From: a virus | Taxonomy: Duplodnaviria; Heunggongvirae; Uroviricota; Caudoviricetes | DNA length: 64,000 nucleotides | Virus record (IMG/VR): IMGVR_UViG_2740892230_000016 | Direction: 5' to 3' (one strand) | Shown here: piece by piece, positions 1 through 13,151 of the stretch | Numbering within the stretch: the first letter of the stretch is position 1 | Layout of the letters: the number at the start of each line of letters is the position of its first letter | Translations under genes and position numbers: made by a program | Notes under the pieces: model-generated | The model's database searches: none | What the model was told of the DNA's origin: nothing | Seen by the model: the letters and a program-made list of their open reading frames with translations, nothing else

Positions 1-2293
1 TACTGCAACGAAATTGAAAACCAAAAGGTCGCTTCAAGTTGACCTCCAAAGTGATAACGCCATCGACTTTGATGGTTCATCAAATGCTCTTCTGGGCATA
101 AAAGGTATTTTACCAATTACTCATGGGGGATTAGGTGCATCCAGCGTCTCTGGAGGGCGTACTAATCTTGGATTAGGTGTTGCGGACATCCCCCAATTTA
201 AGGGTATCAACCTTGTTAACTCAACAGACGCTGATTTAGCGGCGTCAGGGATTGTAAGTGGTTATCTGAATAATTCAGCTGGGGTACAGAGAAGTCGTTT
301 TAGAATTTATTCAGAGATCAGGAGTGACAACCGCTCATGGCTGACGTTACATCTACAATCTGATACCAACACCAATAAATATGCCGGATTAGACATTGAC
401 GGTAATTTTCTGATTACCGGTGATAGCAAATGCCGAGCATTAGAACCAACTGATGTAGCGTTAACAAGAAAAAATATTGATGTTTACAGCAAAGCCGAAG
501 TAGACCTTAAAAAAGGGATGAAATTCACCAGAGTCAATGCTCCTTCTGGAGCTGAAGAGGGTAAATTCTATCCTGTAGTCATCAAGAGATCTGCAACGAG
601 CAATGGTGAACTTGCTTCTCGGGTTATTATTTCCACTGCGCCGCGCCAAGCTGCACATCGCATGAACAACTGCGAATTCAATGGTTTTGTGATGCCTGCT
701 GGTTGGAGTGACAGAGGGCGGTACGCATACGGGATGTTCTGGCAATATCAGGATGCAGAACGGGCGATTCATTCTATTGCGATGAGCAATAAAGACGATG
801 AAGTTAGCTCAGTTTTTTATATTGAAGGCGGAGCATTTCCAGTATGCGTTCTTGTGGAGGAGGGGCTTTCTGTTGTTGTCCCTACAACGGATTATATTGT
901 TGGACAAACCACATACAAATGGGGGGCAACCAACCCTAAAGCTGAATGTATAGCTGCCGACATAATTATTGATTTTAGCAATGGTCGTGGTTTCTATAGC
1001 TCTGGAAACCTCAATGGTAATGCTGCAACAGCAACTAAATTACAGACCGCCAGAACAATCAACGGAGTAACCTTCGATGGCACTACTGATATTTCGTTGA
1101 CACCAGAGAACATTGGCGCGCTGTCACTATCCGGAGGCACATTATTAGGAGGTCTGACAGCTCCTTTACTTACCACTAAAAGCGATCTTATTTTTAGTAG
1201 CCATACAAGCCGTCATATCCGCTTTACATATACGAAAAATGACGGCACAACACTAACTGATGGGTACATATTTAAAGATGGTGTCGATAACCCTAACAGA
1301 CGACCAGGTATCCGGATAAATTGTGCTGCGCCGAATAAAGAAACCGGCAATGGTACTAATTCAGGTGATTGGATATTCGGTGAAGATGGCATTTTTACCA
1401 TGCCGGGTGGCACTGTTCTTCGGGGAGGAATCAATAGCAATGGCGTGCCGCAAAGTGAGTATAAACATGACATGCTCACGTCAGTTGTTGACGATGCAAA
1501 AATGTATCTGCGACGTTTCCGCTCCAGCACAGGTGCAAGCATATGGCATGAAACAATAGAGAATAACGTTTATCGCTTATGCACAGGAACAACTGACGCT
1601 CAGGAAGAGTTAGTCTTGAGGACTGGTTCCTATGCGAAATTCGCTGGCGAGATTATTTCCAAATCGGCGAATGGTCNNNNNNNNNNTTTAACTGTTTATG
1701 GTTCTGTTGGCCTGGGTACTGCAAATGCTCTTGGTGGTAACTCTATCGTCCTTGGCGATAATGATACTGGTTTTAAACAGAATGGTGATGGCATTCTTGA
1801 TGTTTACGCTAATAGTCAGAGAGTATTCCGCTTTAAGAATGATGCAGCTTTTTCTTTAAAAAAATTGCTGGTCGGAGATAGTAAAACTTTTTCATTATCA
1901 AGTTCAAACACGTCCACTAAGAACGTAACCTTTAATCTATGGGGTGCCTCTACTCGTCCTGTTGTAGCTGAATTAGGTGATGATTCAGGATGGCATTTTT
2001 ATAGTCAGAGAAATACTGATAACAGTATAACATTTGCTGTAAATGGTCAGGTGTCCCCCTCTAATTATAGTAATTTTGACTCGCGCTACGCATTAAAGAC
2101 GGCTTGTGTGACCAGCGTCAGACTTGGGGCATATAAAACTCATACCATGCAGAAAGGCACGATGTTTGAAACTGCTGGCTATGTCATTACAGGGCTTGGG
2201 ATTATTGGTGAAGTTGATGGTGACGACCCAGCAAGATTGAGGCCTTTACAGTATTGCATTAATGGAACTTGGTATACAGCAGCCACAGCATGA
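1..2293 (+). CDS. Tail fibre protein, variable C-terminal part (5' partial, interrupted by N-gap 1677..1686)
   Basis: ORF 14..2293 stays open to the window start (frame reads TATKLKTKRSLQ from position 2). Contains the collar repeat GNAATATKLQTARTINGVTFDGT. C-terminus NYSNFDSRYALKTACVTSV...QYCINGTWYTAA is shared with the opposite-strand fibre. Confidence 0.8.
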   Translation, partial: TATKLKTKRSLQVDLQSDNAIDFDGSSNALLGIKGILPITHGGLGASSVSGGRTNLGLGVADIPQFKGINLVNSTDADLAASGIVSGYLNNSAGVQRSRFRIYSEIRSDNRSWLTLHLQSDTNTNKYAGLDIDGNFLITGDSKCRALEPTDVALTRKNIDVYSKAEVDLKKGMKFTRVNAPSGAEEGKFYPVVIKRSATSNGELASRVIISTAPRQAAHRMNNCEFNGFVMPAGWSDRGRYAYGMFWQYQDAERAIHSIAMSNKDDEVSSVFYIEGGAFPVCVLVEEGLSVVVPTTDYIVGQTTYKWGATNPKAECIAADIIIDFSNGRGFYSSGNLNGNAATATKLQTARTINGVTFDGTTDISLTPENIGALSLSGGTLLGGLTAPLLTTKSDLIFSSHTSRHIRFTYTKNDGTTLTDGYIFKDGVDNPNRRPGIRINCAAPNKETGNGTNSGDWIFGEDGIFTMPGGTVLRGGINSNGVPQSEYKHDMLTSVVDDAKMYLRRFRSSTGASIWHETIENNVYRLCTGTTDAQEELVLRTGSYAKFAGEIISKSANGXXXXLTVYGSVGLGTANALGGNSIVLGDNDTGFKQNGDGILDVYANSQRVFRFKNDAAFSLKKLLVGDSKTFSLSSSNTSTKNVTFNLWGASTRPVVAELGDDSGWHFYSQRNTDNSITFAVNGQVSPSNYSNFDSRYALKTACVTSVRLGAYKTHTMQKGTMFETAGYVITGLGIIGEVDGDDPARLRPLQYCINGTWYTAATA
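8..21. repeat. Left copy of inverted repeat ACGAAATTGAAAAC (encodes TKLKT) at the fibre constant/variable junction
   Basis: Exact 14-bp match to the reverse complement of 5328..5341; flanking bases are partly conserved outward, suggesting the repeat extends beyond the window. Confidence 0.6.
11..38. other. Candidate cix-like crossover site (left)
   Basis: AAATTGAAAACC-AA-AAGGTCGCTTCA: the left half-site resembles the Hin/Gin/Cin consensus half-site TTnTnnAAAACC; the right half is degenerate. Confidence 0.4.
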
Positions 2294-2299
2294 TTATTA

Positions 2300-2857
2300 A
2301 TGGATCAAACAATGATTAATTTTAAAAAGTTCACATCCTACACCCCAGATGAAGATAAGTCAGAGCTTGTTGAAGCTGGAGTTGTATTTTTACGTGATGA
2401 AAACGGTAATGACTGGTATGAATGTCAGAAATTTTTTCATGAGAACACGATAAAGATAGTTTATGACAGCGATAATATTGTTGTGAGTATTTCAAACGAT
2501 GTTTCAACACTCTGGCCAGTGGGGGCATCTGTAGCAGAAATAGAAATCCTGCCTGAGGGAGTAGATATTAACGGGAACTGGATGTTTGACGGAAAAAATG
2601 TGGTTGAAAGAGTAAGAACCGCAGATGAGTTAAAAGCTATGGCGGAATCAAGACGCACTGAGCTACTTAACAACGCACGTCAACAACTCGTGATTAGCCA
2701 GACAAAATTACTACGCGGCAGAATATTATCTGAAGATGAACAGTCTTCTCTTGACGCCTGGCTGGACTATATTGATGCAGTTAATGCATTAGATTTCAAC
2801 ACAATAACAGATAAAGCCAGTTTCAATGCGATCGTCTGGCCTACTGAGCCAGGTTAA
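2300..2857 (+). CDS. Tail fibre assembly protein (U-like)
   Basis: Immediately downstream of the fibre gene; 185 aa; shares the ENGNDWYECQK motif with the inverted paralogue 2892..3455. Confidence 0.75.
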   Translation: MDQTMINFKKFTSYTPDEDKSELVEAGVVFLRDENGNDWYECQKFFHENTIKIVYDSDNIVVSISNDVSTLWPVGASVAEIEILPEGVDINGNWMFDGKNVVERVRTADELKAMAESRRTELLNNARQQLVISQTKLLRGRILSEDEQSSLDAWLDYIDAVNALDFNTITDKASFNAIVWPTEPG

Positions 2858-2891: not shown

Positions 2892-3455
2892 CTACGGTTC
2901 TTCTGGCCATTCTGGTTTAGCTGTATCTACGCGATAAACCAACACGCTATAACGCTCCCATGCTTCCAGTTTAGCTCGTTCCTCATCTGTTGCCATATTC
3001 AATTTAACCGCCCGCTCAAGAGTTACAATAACTGATTCGGCATGTGAAAGTAAGGCAGCCTTTTTTGATTCAGCTTGCTGTTGTAACTCCGTATCAGAAT
3101 ATATGCGTTTAACAACAGAGTTGTCTCTAAACACCCAACCACCGTTGATATCTACATCTTCAGGTAAACTATCCACTTCTGCTACAGATAATCCTATGGG
3201 CCAAAGGGTTGAGGCGTCATCCGTAATGCTGACAACGATATTGTTGCTATCATACGCAATTACCTTTGTACATTCCGAAAATAACTTTTGACATTCATAC
3301 CAGTCGTTACCATTTTCATCCAACAGGAATAAAACTCCTGCATCAACAAGCTCTCTTTTATCTTCACCAGGCGTATATGGTGCGAAATTTTTAAAGTTAT
3401 TCATATGCTCTCTCATTATACTGATGCTGCTGTGTACCATGTACCGTTGATACAA
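2892..3455 (-). CDS. Tail fibre assembly protein, alternative copy (U'-like)
   Basis: 187 aa paralogue of 2300..2857 on the opposite strand; convergent arrangement typical of invertible fibre segments. Confidence 0.75.
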   Translation of the reverse strand: MYQRYMVHSSISIMREHMNNFKNFAPYTPGEDKRELVDAGVLFLLDENGNDWYECQKLFSECTKVIAYDSNNIVVSITDDASTLWPIGLSVAEVDSLPEDVDINGGWVFRDNSVVKRIYSDTELQQQAESKKAALLSHAESVIVTLERAVKLNMATDEERAKLEAWERYSVLVYRVDTAKPEWPEEP

Positions 3456-5425
3456 TATTGAACCGGTCGATAATAAATCCCGCCGATATTGTCGGCTGAA
3501 TTACTTCCTGTTTCTTGAACAATAATACCTGTCATAACCAGTCCGCTTCCTAGATTCTGAGTCCAGGAAACACCATTGCTTGATGGTTTATAACTGGCAG
3601 CAGATCCCATTCTTACGCTTGTCACACAAGCCGTTTTTAATGTGTAGCGCGAGTCAAAATTACTATAGTTAGCTGGAAGTATTTGCCCGCCGCACTGGAA
3701 GTTACCACTGCTATCAAGAAATGCTTGGCCATCTGTACCATTTGATGTTCTTGAGTTGTTAATCATGTAAAAGCCGAATTGACTATTACCAAGACCACCA
3801 ATAAAGAACTTTCTGTCAGCATGGTCTTGTCTTAATAATGCCTGGGCGGAACTGGTTGATACCTTATTAAGACCAAAAATAACATTTTGATCTCGCATAC
3901 TAATCCAAGAACCTGAGCTGCTATTAACAGAAAATCTGTTTGCATATACCCATGCATTGGTTCTTATATCGCCAGTTACATTGAGTCCATTACCGATTGA
4001 AACAGCCCCGTTAGCGTTGTTAATGGTAAGCGGTCTTAAACTATTCCATGTTCCAAGATTGTCACCCGAGGCGGTCAACATGAAGTATGTGCTTGAACCA
4101 TCGTTTCGGATAAAGAATCCATAGTTGCCATAGGCAATGCGCAGACCATTCGCCGATTTGGAAATAATCTCGCCAGCAGCAGTTAATCCGCCAGTTAACG
4201 CTCCTCCAGATAGTGGTAAAGCTCCGACATCAGCCGCAGTAGGTTTGTTTTTAGTGTTATACGCTCTGCGCCATCCTGGTGAATAACTTGTGCCATTAGA
4301 CACATAGATAAATTCAGCATTAGTGAGTGCGCCAGATACACTTGTCGTCGTTGCCGTTGTTATACGAATGGTAAAATAACTCGTGCTACTGCTATTATTA
4401 AATACCTCTATAACTGCGCCAGCCAGTGGAATAATGCCGCATCCTGTTTCGCTGTCTGGTATGGATGCACTATTTGCATACGCCCAGGCACAACGCGCTA
4501 TCCATACCTTTGCATTAAAAGCACCATTATCTCGTAGCAGAGTCACTAATTGCTCTGTTGTTATTGATGCTCCATTATCACCTGTTTCAAGCCAACCAGT
4601 AGGAGATGCCGGGCAACCAATATTTGCCGGTGACAGAGAAATATTAGCCGTTCCGTCAAATGAAACCCCATTAATGGTGCGTGCTGTTTGCAGTTTTGTG
4701 GCTGTAGCTGCATTGCCGGTAGTGCTCTGATTGCCTGTTTTATTCACGCCCGGCAGGTCGATGTTTGCGGTGCCATTAAATGAAACACCACCAATAGTTC
4801 TTGCCGTTTGTAATTTCGTTGCAGACGCCGCGTTTCCGGTTGTGTTCTGGTTGCCCGTGGTATTTACACCAGGGATGGAATCCTTCGATGTGTAGACCTG
4901 CGCCCACTCTGACCAACTGGCTGTATCAGTATCTCGTCGCGAACGTACATGTACAGGTGCATGAGCGCCACTTGTACCGCTCCAACCTATGAACAACTCA
5001 CCTTCACCAACTGCCGTTGCGCCCTTAAGATGAAGCACATTCCCGTAAGCAGAAGGATAGCCGTTGTTGTACGCCTCATACATTTGCAATCCAGTAGCAG
5101 CACCTTGTGTTGTACCGGTGAGCGCAGTAACACGCCCTCTGGACGTAATTGTTGGTATCGAAATGTCCACAGAACCATCAAATTTAACACCGTTGATGTT
5201 TCTTGCCGTCGCAAGTTTCGTCGCGGTAGCAGCATTCCCCGTGGTGTTCTGGTTACCTGTTGTATTTACACCTGGAAGATTGATATTGGCCGAGCCATCA
5301 AATGCCACACCGCCAATCGAGCGTGCTGTTTTCAATTTCGTCGCGGTGTCGGCATTCCCTGCCAGCGCCCCGGTGATCCCGCCGTTGAAAGTCTGGCGTG
5401 AACTCCATGTGTTAGCCGTGCTCAA
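3416..5425 (-). CDS. Alternative tail fibre variable part (Sv'-like)
   Basis: 669 aa with repeated GNAATATKL(Q/A)TAR collar motifs and a C-terminus matching the + strand fibre. The reading frame stays open upstream through 5456..5483, so the TTG start in the ORF track is probably not the true N-terminus. Confidence 0.75.
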   Translation of the reverse strand: MSTANTWSSRQTFNGGITGALAGNADTATKLKTARSIGGVAFDGSANINLPGVNTTGNQNTTGNAATATKLATARNINGVKFDGSVDISIPTITSRGRVTALTGTTQGAATGLQMYEAYNNGYPSAYGNVLHLKGATAVGEGELFIGWSGTSGAHAPVHVRSRRDTDTASWSEWAQVYTSKDSIPGVNTTGNQNTTGNAASATKLQTARTIGGVSFNGTANIDLPGVNKTGNQSTTGNAATATKLQTARTINGVSFDGTANISLSPANIGCPASPTGWLETGDNGASITTEQLVTLLRDNGAFNAKVWIARCAWAYANSASIPDSETGCGIIPLAGAVIEVFNNSSSTSYFTIRITTATTTSVSGALTNAEFIYVSNGTSYSPGWRRAYNTKNKPTAADVGALPLSGGALTGGLTAAGEIISKSANGLRIAYGNYGFFIRNDGSSTYFMLTASGDNLGTWNSLRPLTINNANGAVSIGNGLNVTGDIRTNAWVYANRFSVNSSSGSWISMRDQNVIFGLNKVSTSSAQALLRQDHADRKFFIGGLGNSQFGFYMINNSRTSNGTDGQAFLDSSGNFQCGGQILPANYSNFDSRYTLKTACVTSVRMGSAASYKPSSNGVSWTQNLGSGLVMTGIIVQETGSNSADNIGGIYYRPVQYCINGTWYTAASV
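5328..5341. repeat. Right copy of inverted repeat (reverse complement of 8..21)
   Basis: GTTTTCAATTTCGT on the + strand, encoding TATKLKT in the minus-strand fibre. Confidence 0.6.
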
Positions 5426-5455: not shown

Positions 5456-5483
5456 TTCTCTTAAACCAAGGTTTAGGATTGAA
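5456..5483. other. hix/cix-like near-palindromic recombination site overlapping the 3' end of the invertase gene
   Basis: TTCTCTTAAACC-AA-GGTTTAGGATTG compared with recalled hixL TTCTTGAAAACC-AA-GGTTTTTGATAA; the invertase stop codon (5473..5475) lies inside it. Confidence 0.45.
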
Positions 5484-6033
5484 ATGATGACGCCGGAAAC
5501 TTCTTATAAAGCGTGGAAACAGCCACATCATAGATGATTGCAACCTGCTTACGGGGGATGCCCTTCTCGAGCAATCGCCGCATTTGCTGCCATGTTTCTT
5601 CTTGGTATTTAGGCCGACGTCCACCTATACGACCTTCTGCGCGAGCTGCATCAAGTCCAGCGCGTGTACGTTCAACGATAAGCTCACGTTCCATTTCTGC
5701 CAGCGCCCCCATTACGTGAAAGAAAAAGCGCCCCATTGGTGTACTGGTGTCGATGGAGTCAGTGAGACTCCGGAAGTTAATGCCTCTGTCACGCAGCTCT
5801 TCCACCAGCACAACTAAGTGACGCATGCTGCGCCCAAGACGATCTAACTTCCATACGACTAGGGTGTCACCTCTGGAAAGCATACGGAGAACCTTTTTTA
5901 ACCCAGGGCGTTCAGCCTTTTTGCCGCTCGCCTTGTCCTCAAAAATTAGCTCACATCCTGCGCTTTCAAGAGCGTTTCGTTGTAAAGCAGTGTTTTGTTC
6001 ATTTGTTGATACGCGTACATAGCCTATTAGCAT
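5473..6033 (-). CDS. cin: Serine DNA invertase (Cin/Hin/Gin/Pin family)
   Basis: 186 aa; N-terminal MLIGYVRVSTNEQ with the catalytic Ser of the resolvase/invertase fold; C-terminal HTH; directly adjacent to the invertible fibre segment. Confidence 0.9.
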   Translation of the reverse strand: MLIGYVRVSTNEQNTALQRNALESAGCELIFEDKASGKKAERPGLKKVLRMLSRGDTLVVWKLDRLGRSMRHLVVLVEELRDRGINFRSLTDSIDTSTPMGRFFFHVMGALAEMERELIVERTRAGLDAARAEGRIGGRRPKYQEETWQQMRRLLEKGIPRKQVAIIYDVAVSTLYKKFPASSFQS

Positions 6034-6509: not shown

Positions 6510-6839
6510 GTGCTTGACACACAGGAATTAGCTCCAGTTGCTATTGCGCTCCTGCTTTCAGTAATTGGTGGGATAGGCACGTTCCTGATGGATGTCCGAG
6601 ACGGTCGCCAGTCTGGCAATTTGTTAGGATTGGTTACGGAGATCTTTGTTGCAGTGACAGCTGGCGCGGTGGCGTACCTATTGGGGCAACACGAGGGCTG
6701 GGAGTTATCAATTACGTACTTAATGGTAACGATAGCCAGCAATAACGGTCATGAGGTGATTTCAGGGATGAAACGAGTGAATATCGATAGCATTCTGAAT
6801 GTTCTTACAAGTTTGGTGAAAAAGGGAGGCGGGAAATGA
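6510..6839 (+). CDS. lydA: Holin LydA-like
   Basis: 109 aa membrane protein; size and synteny match the first gene of the P1 darA operon; 4-bp overlap with the next gene. Confidence 0.55.
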   Translation: MLDTQELAPVAIALLLSVIGGIGTFLMDVRDGRQSGNLLGLVTEIFVAVTAGAVAYLLGQHEGWELSITYLMVTIASNNGHEVISGMKRVNIDSILNVLTSLVKKGGGK

Positions 6840-10163: not shown

Positions 10164-13151
10164 ATGAGCTTAAGCGATCAGGTGGTGATGGCCACCAGCA
10201 TAGAAACGCTGATCGAGCTGCTAAAAAACCTGCCCGATTACGGGCGGGTTTCGTATGTGGTGACAGCGAAGGGAGACGAGGTAAAAACAGCGTTTGATAT
10301 CGTCGATGCCTCAACTCTTTTGGTATCCAATACTCTGGACGGGAAAATTAATCCGGACTATCCCCAGGAACTTCAGCCGCGCGACCGGACCCGCGCATCC
10401 AGCCTTCTTCAGGTTAACCAGATATCCAAGGATTTGCGGCCTGCTCAGCTTACCGATTCCGGTCTATCCAGCCATGGCGCGCCGATAATTGGTGAGGACA
10501 ATGCCGTTGAGTCAGGTAATGGACGGACCATGGGGATCATTAAAGCCTATCAGGACGGCAATGCGGATCGGTATCGGGAGTACCTGATTGAACATGCGAC
10601 CGAATTCGGCATACGACCTGAAAAGGTTGAATCAATGACGGCTCCGGTACTGGTGCGCCGCCGGTTAACGAAGGTTGACCGCGTTCAGTTTGCCAAGGAC
10701 TCAAATATTTCTGATCTTCAGGAAATGGCAGCCAGTGAAAAGGCTTTTGTTGATGCCGACAACATAACTCCGGCGATGATGGCGCTGTTTAACCCGTCAG
10801 AAAGCGGAGATCTGCTTAGCCGCAGTAATGACGCGTTTATTCGCGGATTCATGACGCAAGTTGGTGCCACACAGGCGGCTGGCCTTGTAACTGAAGATGG
10901 GCGACCAACACGGCAACTTGTTGACCGTATACAAAACGCGATCTTTGCCAAGGCATATAAGGATGCGCGCCTGGTAAGGATGGTTGCAGAAGAACCTGAT
11001 CCGGATATGCGTAATGTTCTGACGGCGCTTAATGCGGCAGCCAATGATTTTGTCCAGATGCAGGCTTTATCAGGAGAAGCGCACAAGCAGGCTGTGACAA
11101 CTATTGTTGATGGCATTGAGACAGCGGATAGCCTCGATAAAAAGGCGCTGGCGGCATTGAAAGATGCGGTAGACCTGGTAAGGCAATCGAAGGAGTCAGG
11201 CCAGCATATTACCGATGTTATTGCTCAGGGGGATATGTTCAGCGAAACGGCCCCGGAAGTGAAAGCACTCGCGTTGTTCATCGTCGCGAATAACCGTAGC
11301 GCGAAGCGTATGGCCACCGCCTTTAAGTTGATGGCGCAACGTATCAATGATGAGTTACAGCACCAGGGCCAGGCGCTCGGGGATATGTTTGGCGGCGGCG
11401 ATGTGTCGTTACAGGATATCCTTCGCCAGGTGTCTCAGGAACTGGAATACGAAGGCATGCAAGGGATATCCGGCGGTCTTTTCGAGTCCGTTTCCGGCGG
11501 TAGTTACAACGGTGTTGCTCCGTATACCAGTTTGCTATTACATCGGGCATCCGGCATCAAAGACATTATTCATCTGATCAGGCTGCTTTCCCGCACAGAT
11601 CCCCAGGATGAACAGCTTGTACAAGTGCTTGCGCATTTTGTTCGAATGCCTGTTGCCGACGTGAAAAAATGGTGCCGATTATTCGGTATCAGCAATTCGT
11701 TACTTCGCGGCTTGTTAAATCACGCATCCTCCCTTGGGCGCGATGGCTTTGACGAGATAGCGCAGGCGATAAAAAACGGAGATATGCCACCAGCTATTGA
11801 CTGGTTTTCCATTCGCCCAACCAGGGTGAAAGCATTCCTTAGCGCGGCGCATTCGGCATCACCATTGGCAGAAATGGTTCAGAGGTTGTCGCTCATATTC
11901 ACAGACCATACCGCGTTGGGTGATCTGACTCTGGACGAGATGAAAGAAGCCTCCATTCAGTGGGCCGATCAACAAAATGAGGTTAACTCAGACTTCTTGC
12001 CAGCATTCAGGAAGGCCGTTGGTAAAGCGGATGATGCCCGTGGAATTCTGAAGGCATTTAAGGCATTGCAAAGTCGGGTTAATAAACATGTCGGTGATAT
12101 CGATGGGGTAACGGCGGAAGGCAGGGATATCCTTAAAGAGCACGGCATAACGCCAGAGTTTATTGATGAGATCAGGACGGATATGCAGCGTGAGGTCGTA
12201 TCGTCCCTGCAAATTGTAGCCAGAGCGTTGGCGGATGCTAATCCGAAGAGTGCGGCCATTGTTAACCGGGTTATTGGTGATATTGAAGCATCGGAGGGCA
12301 TGGGGGCGCTGAAACTCTTCCTTTCGCGAGCGTTTAATCCTAACGGCAATATTCTCCCTGGCATTATTGGTGAGGCTAAAAAGTATGTCAGTGAAGAAGA
12401 ACTTGAGCAGCTTGACCAACTACTTAAGCGATTCTCATACAACCCGCAGACACGCTGGCAAATGAATCAGCGAAGTATGGGTTCGGTCCACGAGAAAGTG
12501 TTATCTGCCATGAACAGTGCGATCGCAAACTCATCCGTATCTGAAGAAAAAGCTCTTGAGTGGGCCGACTCTTTTATCACGGAAGAAGTGGAAGAAGCCC
12601 GCGCTGGACAGAATGGTGGGATAGACCTGCGCAAGGAACTTGCTGATATTTATCGCCTGACCGGCGGTAAAATTTCGACCTTATCAAAGGTGGTTCACCA
12701 CAAGGGAAGGGCATATGCAAATCTTAATGGTGTTGTTGCTGTCAATTTGAACGATGAAAATGCAAGTGCACTGTGGCACGAGCTGGGTCATCATCTTGAG
12801 TACAGTAACCCTGGTTTGTTAGAGAAAGCCCGGTCATTCCTGAAGGCCAATGTTGAAGGGGATAAGCCATCTTTCGTTAATATCGGTGGGCGTGGCAAGC
12901 CTGAATGGTGCTTCAGATCTCGATTGAGTAATATTTATATGGCGAAGGTATACCCGCCAGTCTCAGTGAGTAACTCCGGGAAAATTCGGCAGAAATCACC
13001 GACCATTTCCAAAACGTCAGCAACGGAAGTATTCTCTATGGCTCTTCAGTTGTATCATGACAAAGAGGCCGCTGCCGCATCACTGATGAATGGTGACGGA
13101 TTGCTGGAACTGTTATTAGGTGTGGCAAAGGAGCTAAATAATGCAGATTAA
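10164..13151 (+). CDS. ddrB: DdrB-like large antirestriction-associated protein
   Basis: 995 aa (about 109 kDa), matching the recalled size of P1 DdrB; last large gene of the operon. Confidence 0.6.
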   Translation: MSLSDQVVMATSIETLIELLKNLPDYGRVSYVVTAKGDEVKTAFDIVDASTLLVSNTLDGKINPDYPQELQPRDRTRASSLLQVNQISKDLRPAQLTDSGLSSHGAPIIGEDNAVESGNGRTMGIIKAYQDGNADRYREYLIEHATEFGIRPEKVESMTAPVLVRRRLTKVDRVQFAKDSNISDLQEMAASEKAFVDADNITPAMMALFNPSESGDLLSRSNDAFIRGFMTQVGATQAAGLVTEDGRPTRQLVDRIQNAIFAKAYKDARLVRMVAEEPDPDMRNVLTALNAAANDFVQMQALSGEAHKQAVTTIVDGIETADSLDKKALAALKDAVDLVRQSKESGQHITDVIAQGDMFSETAPEVKALALFIVANNRSAKRMATAFKLMAQRINDELQHQGQALGDMFGGGDVSLQDILRQVSQELEYEGMQGISGGLFESVSGGSYNGVAPYTSLLLHRASGIKDIIHLIRLLSRTDPQDEQLVQVLAHFVRMPVADVKKWCRLFGISNSLLRGLLNHASSLGRDGFDEIAQAIKNGDMPPAIDWFSIRPTRVKAFLSAAHSASPLAEMVQRLSLIFTDHTALGDLTLDEMKEASIQWADQQNEVNSDFLPAFRKAVGKADDARGILKAFKALQSRVNKHVGDIDGVTAEGRDILKEHGITPEFIDEIRTDMQREVVSSLQIVARALADANPKSAAIVNRVIGDIEASEGMGALKLFLSRAFNPNGNILPGIIGEAKKYVSEEELEQLDQLLKRFSYNPQTRWQMNQRSMGSVHEKVLSAMNSAIANSSVSEEKALEWADSFITEEVEEARAGQNGGIDLRKELADIYRLTGGKISTLSKVVHHKGRAYANLNGVVAVNLNDENASALWHELGHHLEYSNPGLLEKARSFLKANVEGDKPSFVNIGGRGKPEWCFRSRLSNIYMAKVYPPVSVSNSGKIRQKSPTISKTSATEVFSMALQLYHDKEAAAASLMNGDGLLELLLGVAKELNNAD

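Follow-up and report, generated by a model that had tools for sequence, protein, structure and literature searches.

A nested tip-and-chaperone inversion within the Cin-associated tail-fibre switch of a P1-like phage-plasmid

Two alternative tail-fibre genes at the start of the IMG/VR virus record IMGVR_UViG_2740892230_000016 (Caudoviricetes) share a perfect inverted repeat, one copy of which breaks off at a run of ten Ns; the question raised by this locus is whether the break betrays a misassembly, a genuine site of recombination, or simply a repeat that could not be assembled. The stretch of this record that we analyzed, called the window throughout, is 64,000 nucleotides long. The first-pass annotation had suggested that the fibre gene on the + strand may be a scaffold chimera joined inside a 34-bp repeat, or that the repeat may be an internal recombination hotspot between fibre alleles; it lacked the context of Cin and its C segment, the true length of the repeat (191 bp), and the origin of the figure 34 in the assembler. 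To judge from its sequence, the window opens inside the C segment that Cin inverts in a P1-like (IncY-type) phage-plasmid: complete relatives (IncY plasmids and 'Punavirus P1' MH422554) match this part at 99.9-100% identity, and they have Sc, the constant part of the fibre gene, and cixR just upstream of position 1. The core of cixR, which is present in all complete relatives, is off the window, ~120 nt upstream of its start. The parts follow each other in the order [Sc-cixR, off the window] A - IR - X - U / U' - Y - IR' - B - cixL - cin, where A and B are variants of the fibre shaft, X and Y are fibre tips, U and U' are the assembly chaperones of these tips, and IR and IR' are the left and right copies of the inverted repeat (Table 1).

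The explanation that best accounts for the locus as a whole, to which we assign a probability of about 0.68, combines a gap left by a collapsed repeat, a nested invertible segment, an inner inversion that would be driven by Cin, and an orthogonality of inner and outer sites founded on their core dinucleotides.

The gap and the true length of the repeat

The perfect 34-bp inverted repeat is real, and chance is ruled out for a match of this length within 64 kb; its partner, however, is located at 4144-4177, three bases off the interval 4141-4174 first assigned to it. The N run does start at the base directly after the 34-mer, and the peptide AGEIISKSANG is indeed encoded by both copies, in the frame of the two convergent fibre open reading frames (ORFs) 14..2293 (+) and 3416..5425 (−). 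The window contains nine 10-N runs. At five of the nine (starting at 1677, 50868, 60886, 61142 and 61555) the left flank recurs elsewhere in the window over exactly 34 nt and no further, while a repeated right flank is found at none of the nine. Since the same length recurs at five gaps, it reflects the assembler rather than a biological length: a short-read de Bruijn assembler run at k = 35 leaves overlaps of k-1, hence the constant 34, and the length of 34 is an assembler artefact. The contig ended k-1 = 34 nt inside the left copy of the repeat, and the scaffolder put ten Ns in place of the other 157 nt. Gaps at collapsed repeats in short-read scaffolds have this very structure, with a contig end k-1 nt into the repeat followed by a fixed 10-N spacer, and we see no difference here. 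Deliberate masking was considered as the origin of the Ns and rejected, since an overlap that is 34 nt long at five gaps alike is the mark of an assembler.

The missing bases can be read in complete relatives. Nine complete plasmids in PLSDB match positions 1-2900 on both sides of the gap with 97.8-100% identity (five at 100%), and span 3047 nt against 2890 non-N bases in the window; thus, 157 nt are missing in the gap. In plasmid L002 (NZ_CP116091) the fill is found at 6677-6833: the reading frame continues through it, and it is the exact reverse complement of window positions 3987-4143. The identity of the fill with the other copy stops at the base where the window resumes, 1687, so that the true repeat is 191 bp long, perfect and inverted. 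Both alternative fibre genes read through it in frame, and its two copies agree even at all synonymous positions, between flanks that are unrelated. Comparison of the gap with related genomes in silico gave a simple in-frame fill of 157 bp and no rearrangement, the very outcome that the first-pass annotation had named as refuting its proposal.

The other gaps of this kind deserve a brief description. At 50868-77, 60886-95, 61142-51 and 61555-64 the 34-nt left flank is repeated 70-670 nt downstream on the same strand. Those at 60.8-61.6 kb fall within near-duplicate ninG/ninH/Q-like segments, and are probably collapsed copies from paralogous lambdoid prophages; a search for tandem repeats in the 50-64 kb part of the window found none.

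Assembly trouble at the 191-bp repeat is also seen in strain M37H, whose RefSeq 'complete' assembly (L026/L027 = NZ_CP092241.1, NZ_CP092242.1) is fragmented at this repeat, at positions 47/48, such that the 2588-bp inner cassette and the 1773-bp module A are deposited as separate linear 'plasmids'. Either the locus defeats other assemblers as well, or the culture was mixed.

Four arrangements of the fibre locus

In order to establish which shafts and tips are joined in nature, the locus was cut into the modules A, IR, X, U, U', Y, IR' and B, with the boundaries of Table 1, and these were mapped on complete plasmids. Sc is followed by A-IR-X-U in L002, L019 and the window itself, by A-IR-Y-U' in L003, L021 and L023, by B-IR-X-U in L001, L020 and L025, and by B-IR-Y-U' in L005 and L022. 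As all four joins to Sc are found, the 2.3-kb X-U-U'-Y piece between the IR copies must also invert, besides the inversion between cixL and cixR. Each tip keeps its own chaperone across the inner flip, and what changes is the shaft, A or B. One fibre gene is therefore present in four arrangements, more than the two of a simple switch, in plasmids that are nearly identical.

The closest comparisons come from plasmids of the same origin. A single pig-farm sample yielded three isolates that share a 95,217-bp plasmid, each with the locus in another state. Inner and outer state both differ between two E. fergusonii plasmids of 94,718 bp, and likewise between two plasmids (90,359 and 90,361 bp) from enterotoxigenic E. 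coli (ETEC). Judged by these plasmid sequences, the inner flip is both recent and recurrent. Neither orientation is rare: PLSDB holds 9 records with the A-X junction versus at least 12 flipped ones, and the 5,426 complete E. coli genomes, a set that overlaps with that of PLSDB, include 6 with A-X and about as many in the flipped state.

The outer inversion, between cixL and cixR, exchanges whole fibre tails, while the inner inversion, between IR and IR', exchanges a tip with its cognate chaperone between shafts A and B; both together give four fibres, A-X, A-Y, B-X and B-Y. The A-X join of the window is a natural isomer, one of two natural possibilities, and since B-IR'-Y was assembled without a gap, A-X is the complementary path. 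The idea of a scaffold chimera inside the repeat thus retains only its first half: the join does fall inside the repeat, but a chimera is not demonstrated, A-repeat-X being natural in complete plasmids. The idea of an internal recombination hotspot, on the other hand, gains support in a refined form, as the repeat bounds a nested invertible segment that occurs in both orientations in otherwise identical plasmids. Taken jointly, that the gap is an ordinary collapsed repeat and that the nested switch exists are points on which we have hardly any doubt.

Two relatives depart from the common layout. In CP042632.1 (L009) there are five sites, namely cixR, three inner 26-mers and cixL, at 4125, 5965, 9643, 10594 and 12018; one of the inner 26-mers is forward and the other two, 951 bp apart, are reverse, in what amounts to a larger, shufflon-like version of the same design. 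With three inner copies in this plasmid, the design evidently scales. In pDETEC74 (L002, NZ_CP116091.1) an IS26 at 10442-11200 has taken the place of cixL and cin, together with the initial 130 nt of module B, and the switch of this plasmid is, as this replacement predicts, locked in the A-X state.

Sequence evidence on the enzyme of the inner inversion

The locus has the parts of a switch of the Din type: a serine recombinase with a C-terminal helix-turn-helix, two inverted 26-bp sites, and alternative fibre 3' ends each with a chaperone; a cis-acting recombinational (Fis) enhancer is likewise present, as identified by its sequence. Is the same recombinase responsible for the inner flip? We consider it probable, from the features of the sites described below, that the inner inversion is catalysed by Cin at a 26-mer that lies at positions 65-90 of the repeat.

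A half-site matrix was built from the published hix, gix, pix, mix and bix sites, with cix left out. With this matrix cixL obtains the top score in the window, and the inner 26-mer ranks 4 of 63,842 window positions, its strong half reaching 9.8 bits; a combination of a weak and a strong half is also found in several mix sites. In the S coding sequence the inner site begins, like cixR, at phase 1, and with the same codon phase any exchange stays in frame. The homologous stretch in S of classical P1 and D108 encodes the same FFIRNDG with DNA that reads TTATTCGTAATG; the P1 S version of the whole 26-mer is TTATTCGTAATGATGGTTCAAATACA, which encodes FIRNDGS except for S->N. Three synonymous differences from P1 S each bring the inner site closer to the consensus of Din half-sites, with a score of 9.7 for its left half against 0.7 in P1 S, and the homologues in P2-like and T4-like phages have a lower overall score. 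A pattern defined post hoc, ATCCNANACNNTGGTTNAAG, is circular as evidence and was used for locating sites only.

The most direct trace of a crossover is a hybrid site, CAATCCTAAACC-AT-GGTTCAAGCACA, which adjoins cin in L004 (CP066198.1, 7590-7620) and L005 (NZ_CP062890.1, 5995-6025), two plasmids in which module A is deleted. It consists of the outer (left) half of cixL and the right half of the inner site, and the transition from one to the other falls precisely at the boundary of position 12 and the core, where microhomology is absent. Such a sequence is what a 2-bp staggered exchange by a serine recombinase, followed by segregation of the core mismatch, would leave; read in this way, it means that a Cin-type crossover at the inner site has demonstrably occurred at least once. 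Gin-mediated deletions and Cin recombination at quasi-sites with 'localized conversion' are on record, as far as the citations to them relate. L004 and L005 also differ from each other in the orientation of the tip cassette, which indicates that the hybrid site, or the remaining 113 bp of homology, still supports inversion.

Single-nucleotide polymorphisms (SNPs) in the repeat stay with the adjoining module over flips: 36T/39T remain with A in the E. fergusonii pair, 111C remains with Y in six plasmids whether its partner is A, B or the hybrid, and those at 165/168/171 remain with Y in the ETEC pair. This linkage confines the crossovers to repeat positions 40-110 of 191, an interval that includes the core at 77-78. 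In the third copy of CP042632 the identity to the right of the site is unbroken for ~30 nt only, and the 26-mer is kept exactly. The 26-mer is in fact always exact in diverged copies, but it is embedded in a generally conserved module, so that this is no clean test for an island of conservation; the exact 26-mer is found at 9 loci in IMG/VR, which are too few for statistics.

Core dinucleotides of the inner and outer sites

The outer sites have the cores AA/TT and the inner site has the core AT. With cixR reading TTATCCAATACC-TT-GGTTTAAGAGAA, and cixL, taken from the cin side, reading CAATCCTAAACC-TT-GGTTTAAGAGAA, it can be seen that the outer sites agree with each other in their cores. Matching core dinucleotides are required for Din recombination, a requirement for which Iida and Hiestand-Nauer (1987) are reportedly the reference. 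An AT core, unlike AA/TT, would keep the inner and outer sites from recombining productively with one another. In the table of Din sites in PMC3241671 the core is always AA or GA, so that a palindromic AT core would be unusual.

The distribution of junctions is in line with such a separation. A scan of IMG/VR for the outer/inner hybrid sites ATCCWAWACCNNGGTTCAAGCACA and TTATCCGAAACGNNGGTTTAAGAGAA gave 0 hits, and synthetic Sc/inner and inner/cix junctions had no record at 80% coverage among 72,556 PLSDB plasmids, whereas both within-class inversions are found at near-equal frequencies. Recombination of every site with every other, as in Min-like systems, is thus not what is seen here: the cores differ and there is no outer x inner inversion junction. 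We incline, by a little more than an even chance, to the view that the locus is a two-tier switch operated by an unaltered P1 Cin, in which a class of AT-core sites would have been set in a fibre domain by synonymous codons, the nested cassette of tip plus chaperone would be inverted independently, and the cores would keep the two tiers orthogonal, with 2 x 2 fibres as the outcome and more where there are three inner sites.

Alternative explanations

It might be asked whether the repeat has any role in rearrangement, or is merely a conserved coding motif of two paralogous fibre genes. The repeat does code for a portion of a Gp34_trimer-like domain, which is widespread among fibres, but the identity of the 191 bp at all synonymous positions, between unrelated flanks, and the presence of the enclosed segment in both orientations among otherwise identical plasmids leave this explanation with a negligible probability. 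An actual scaffold chimera, in which A is followed by Y in the isolate, or the culture was mixed, and the wrong partner was chosen across the repeat, deserves more attention, because the 10-N bridge falls in a repeat whose exits X and Y both follow A in nature, and because flipped records are at least as common as A-X records. The same scaffold, moreover, seems to pass from P1-like DNA into a Stx2-type prophage via a shared 1.24-kb segment, which makes repeat assembly errors plausible. Nevertheless, we hold a chimera to be unlikely: B-IR'-Y is free of gaps (window 3416-5425), leaving A-X as its complement, the exact A-X join is found in the 9 PLSDB plasmids and 6 complete E. coli genomes already mentioned (overlapping sets), and the reading frame is unbroken across the fill.

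The role of Cin is a different matter. The nested inversion may be real but RecA-dependent, with crossovers anywhere in the 191-bp repeat, in which case the 26-mer would be a by-product of the fibre motif and the hybrid a one-off accident of Cin at a quasi-site. A perfect inverted repeat of 191 bp is an adequate substrate for RecA, and several other observations weigh against Cin. One of the inner half-sites is poor (-0.3 bits), two unrelated positions of the window score as high as the inner site or higher, and its 4th rank, which holds only within the window, carries no significance by itself. Fibres of T4-like and P2-like phages, of Mu and of P1 have kept the peptide motif, and with it much of the DNA that encodes it; since GFFIRNDG with similar DNA occurs also in T4-like fibres without an invertase, part of the sequence conservation is driven by the protein. 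A palindromic AT core is not known from natural Din sites. The hybrid comes from a single lineage (two plasmids, one study), and records a deletion, not an inversion. The linkage of SNPs discriminates weakly, as it is compatible with uniform crossovers, under which its probability is ~0.07-0.13 (for a minimal event count and few markers). Finally, both the isomeric state of the isolate and the identity of the enzyme are deductions from assembled DNA sequence. Against RecA, in turn, are the placement of the hybrid junction, exactly between half-site position 12 and the core and without microhomology, the codon phase of the inner site, which is that of cixR, and its synonymous codon choices, which are the most consensus-like among the homologues compared; in every informative flip the SNPs are on the side predicted by a crossover at 77-78, and the third copy of CP042632 has only ~30 nt of identity to the right of the site and yet an exact 26-mer. 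On balance, we regard RecA as a possible but doubtful agent of the inner flip, and Cin as the better candidate.

Features of the locus and of the rest of the window

The features of the switch locus are collected in Table 1. The right copy of the repeat encodes the C-terminal part of a Gp34_trimer-like domain, with Pfam PF21446 extending over this stretch.

Table 1. Coordinates of the elements of the fibre switch in the window.
Feature	Position	Strand	Description and evidence
Module A, first fibre shaft variant	1..1642	+	Middle of the expressed S-type tail-fibre gene, ORF 14..2293; 99.9-100% identical to S of complete P1-like plasmids
IR left copy, first 34 nt	1643..1676	+	GCTGGCGAGATTATTTCCAAATCGGCGAATGGTC; the stretch flagged in the first-pass annotation
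10-N assembly gap	1677..1686		Stands for 157 nt = IR positions 35-191, including the left copy of the inner cix-like site
Tip X	1687..2293	+	C-terminal (receptor-binding) end of the + strand fibre; ORF and module map
U	2300..2857	+	Tail-fibre assembly chaperone of tip X; Pfam Caudo_TAP, E = 1.8e-21
U'	2892..3404	−	Tail-fibre assembly chaperone of tip Y; Pfam Caudo_TAP, E = 5.8e-29
Tip Y	3416..3986	−	C-terminal end of the − strand (silent) fibre; ORF 3416..5425 and module map
IR'	3987..4177	−	Full right copy of the 191-bp repeat; exact reverse complement of the IR of L002
Inner cix-like 26-mer	4088..4113	−	TTATCCGAAACG-AT-GGTTCAAGCACA; repeat positions 65-90; core AT at 4100-4101
Module B, second fibre shaft variant	4178..5425	−	Silent in this orientation; ORF and module map
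cixL, outer Cin crossover site	5456..5481	+	TTCTCTTAAACC-AA-GGTTTAGGATTG, in full TTCTCTTAAACCAAGGTTTAGGATTG; identical to cixL in Table 3 of PMC3241671
cin, serine DNA invertase	5473..6033	−	Pfam Resolvase, E = 4.6e-51, and HTH_7, E = 1.9e-18; 186/186 amino acids identical to P1 Cin
Recombinational enhancer within cin	5944..6015	−	72/72 nt identical to the NC_005856 feature 'enhancer of Cin-mediated C-segment inversion'

Further repeats are present in the fibre genes. Module B contains, at 4653-5275, three direct copies of a 101-nt unit (~72% identical), which encode a repeated NTTGNAATATKLQTARTINGVSFDG motif, and a motif related to NTTGNAATATKLQTARTINGVSFDG is found also in module A, near 1021-1100. 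Two imperfect inverted repeats relate the two arms of the inner cassette: one between tips X and Y (2061-2127 / 3606-3672, 67 nt, 90%), and the other between the 5' ends of U and U' (2312-2437 / 3279-3404, 126 nt, 79%). These could serve as extra patches of homology for the exchange of tips or chaperones.

The far end of the window is of a different nature. From 42857 to 64000 it is not P1-like, but matches, at 99% identity, the Stx2 prophage in the chromosome of E. coli O104:H4, and an intact Shiga toxin 2 operon is located at its end (stx2A 62706-63665, stx2B 63677-63946; Pfam RIP, E = 1.7e-29, with the A and B subunits both read). P1-like plasmids match only up to ~44099, and the stretch 44000-50860 was found in no plasmid of PLSDB. 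A 1.24-kb DUF551/Ea22 segment common to both (42857-44099) links plasmid and prophage, and the junction is free of Ns; the join is either a chimeric contig or a real recombinant. The prophage part also carries, at 52966-55385, a pair formed by a BsuBI/PstI-type restriction endonuclease and an Eco57I-like methylase.

Implications

The immediate consequence of these results is that 157 nt suffice to close the fibre gene in silico, and that nothing special is needed to explain the gap. More generally, P1, a mainstay of transduction and DNA delivery, is the textbook example of a host-range switch with two states, while natural relatives with the same Cin encode four fibre combinations from one locus; with four combinations, their host range would be wider and more changeable than one expects when the annotation is read as a switch of two states. 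Should Cin indeed use the AT-core site, orthogonality of core dinucleotides would exist naturally within a single invertase system, and could be useful for synthetic multi-state inversion devices. On the practical side, short-read assemblies of phage-plasmids of this type will break or be joined wrongly at the repeat, and 'complete' records show one of four states.

Comparison with known systems

These results can be placed beside the invertible fibre loci already described. The nearest of them is the C segment of P1 with its Cin: the recombinase (186/186 amino acids), the enhancer (72/72 nt) and cixL are identical, the order cin - C segment - Sc - R is the same, and there is a chaperone for each fibre 3' end. 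Classical P1 differs in that the homologous module is present as a single copy, in S only, with 74% identity and a non-consensus sequence at the position of the site; with a single copy, P1 has one invertible unit and two fibres. In the locus described here the 191-bp repeat, present in both fibres, adds a nested unit and two more fibres.

The Gin/G segment of Mu and the Pin/e14-type switches employ the same family of enzymes and the same swap of a fibre C-terminus plus chaperone, but they have two sites and two states. Shufflons of the R64 type (Rci) resemble the present locus in having several invertible pieces and many C-termini of one protein, and differ from it in their tyrosine recombinase, their sites, and their target, the pilus adhesin PilV. 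Among T-even phages, homologous exchange between tail-fibre genes is mediated by shared motifs, according to what PMC10879196 relates of Tetart et al. (1998). The likeness lies in a conserved fibre module, common with T4-like gp34/gp37, that forms the junction between exchangeable parts; the T-even exchange, however, takes place between genomes and on an evolutionary timescale, and is not a reversible intramolecular inversion beside an invertase.

A system with more than two states is Min of p15B, which has six mix sites: it too belongs to a P1-related plasmid with one Din invertase, more than two in-frame crossover sites in a tail-fibre gene, and several 3' ends. The multiple inversion of p15B Min was reportedly worked out by Sandmeier et al. 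in 1990-92, and its mix sites are said to recombine with one another. All the mix sites in the site table of PMC3241671 have an AA core, and regions of the Min type are known from some P7-like plasmids, among them pMCR_SCKP-LL83 (PMC5786510). The present locus differs from Min in having two classes of sites (AA/TT outer, AT inner), strictly nested rather than all-against-all; its inner sites are contained in a long perfect repeat, as opposed to the bare 26-mers of Min, and the mix sequences differ from that of the inner site. The literature that we searched, which lacked the primary Min papers, contained no description of the nested Cin arrangement, and a prior description is possible. Multiple inversion in P1-related plasmids is already known from p15B Min, and the nested arrangement with two classes of sites found here is a variant of it.

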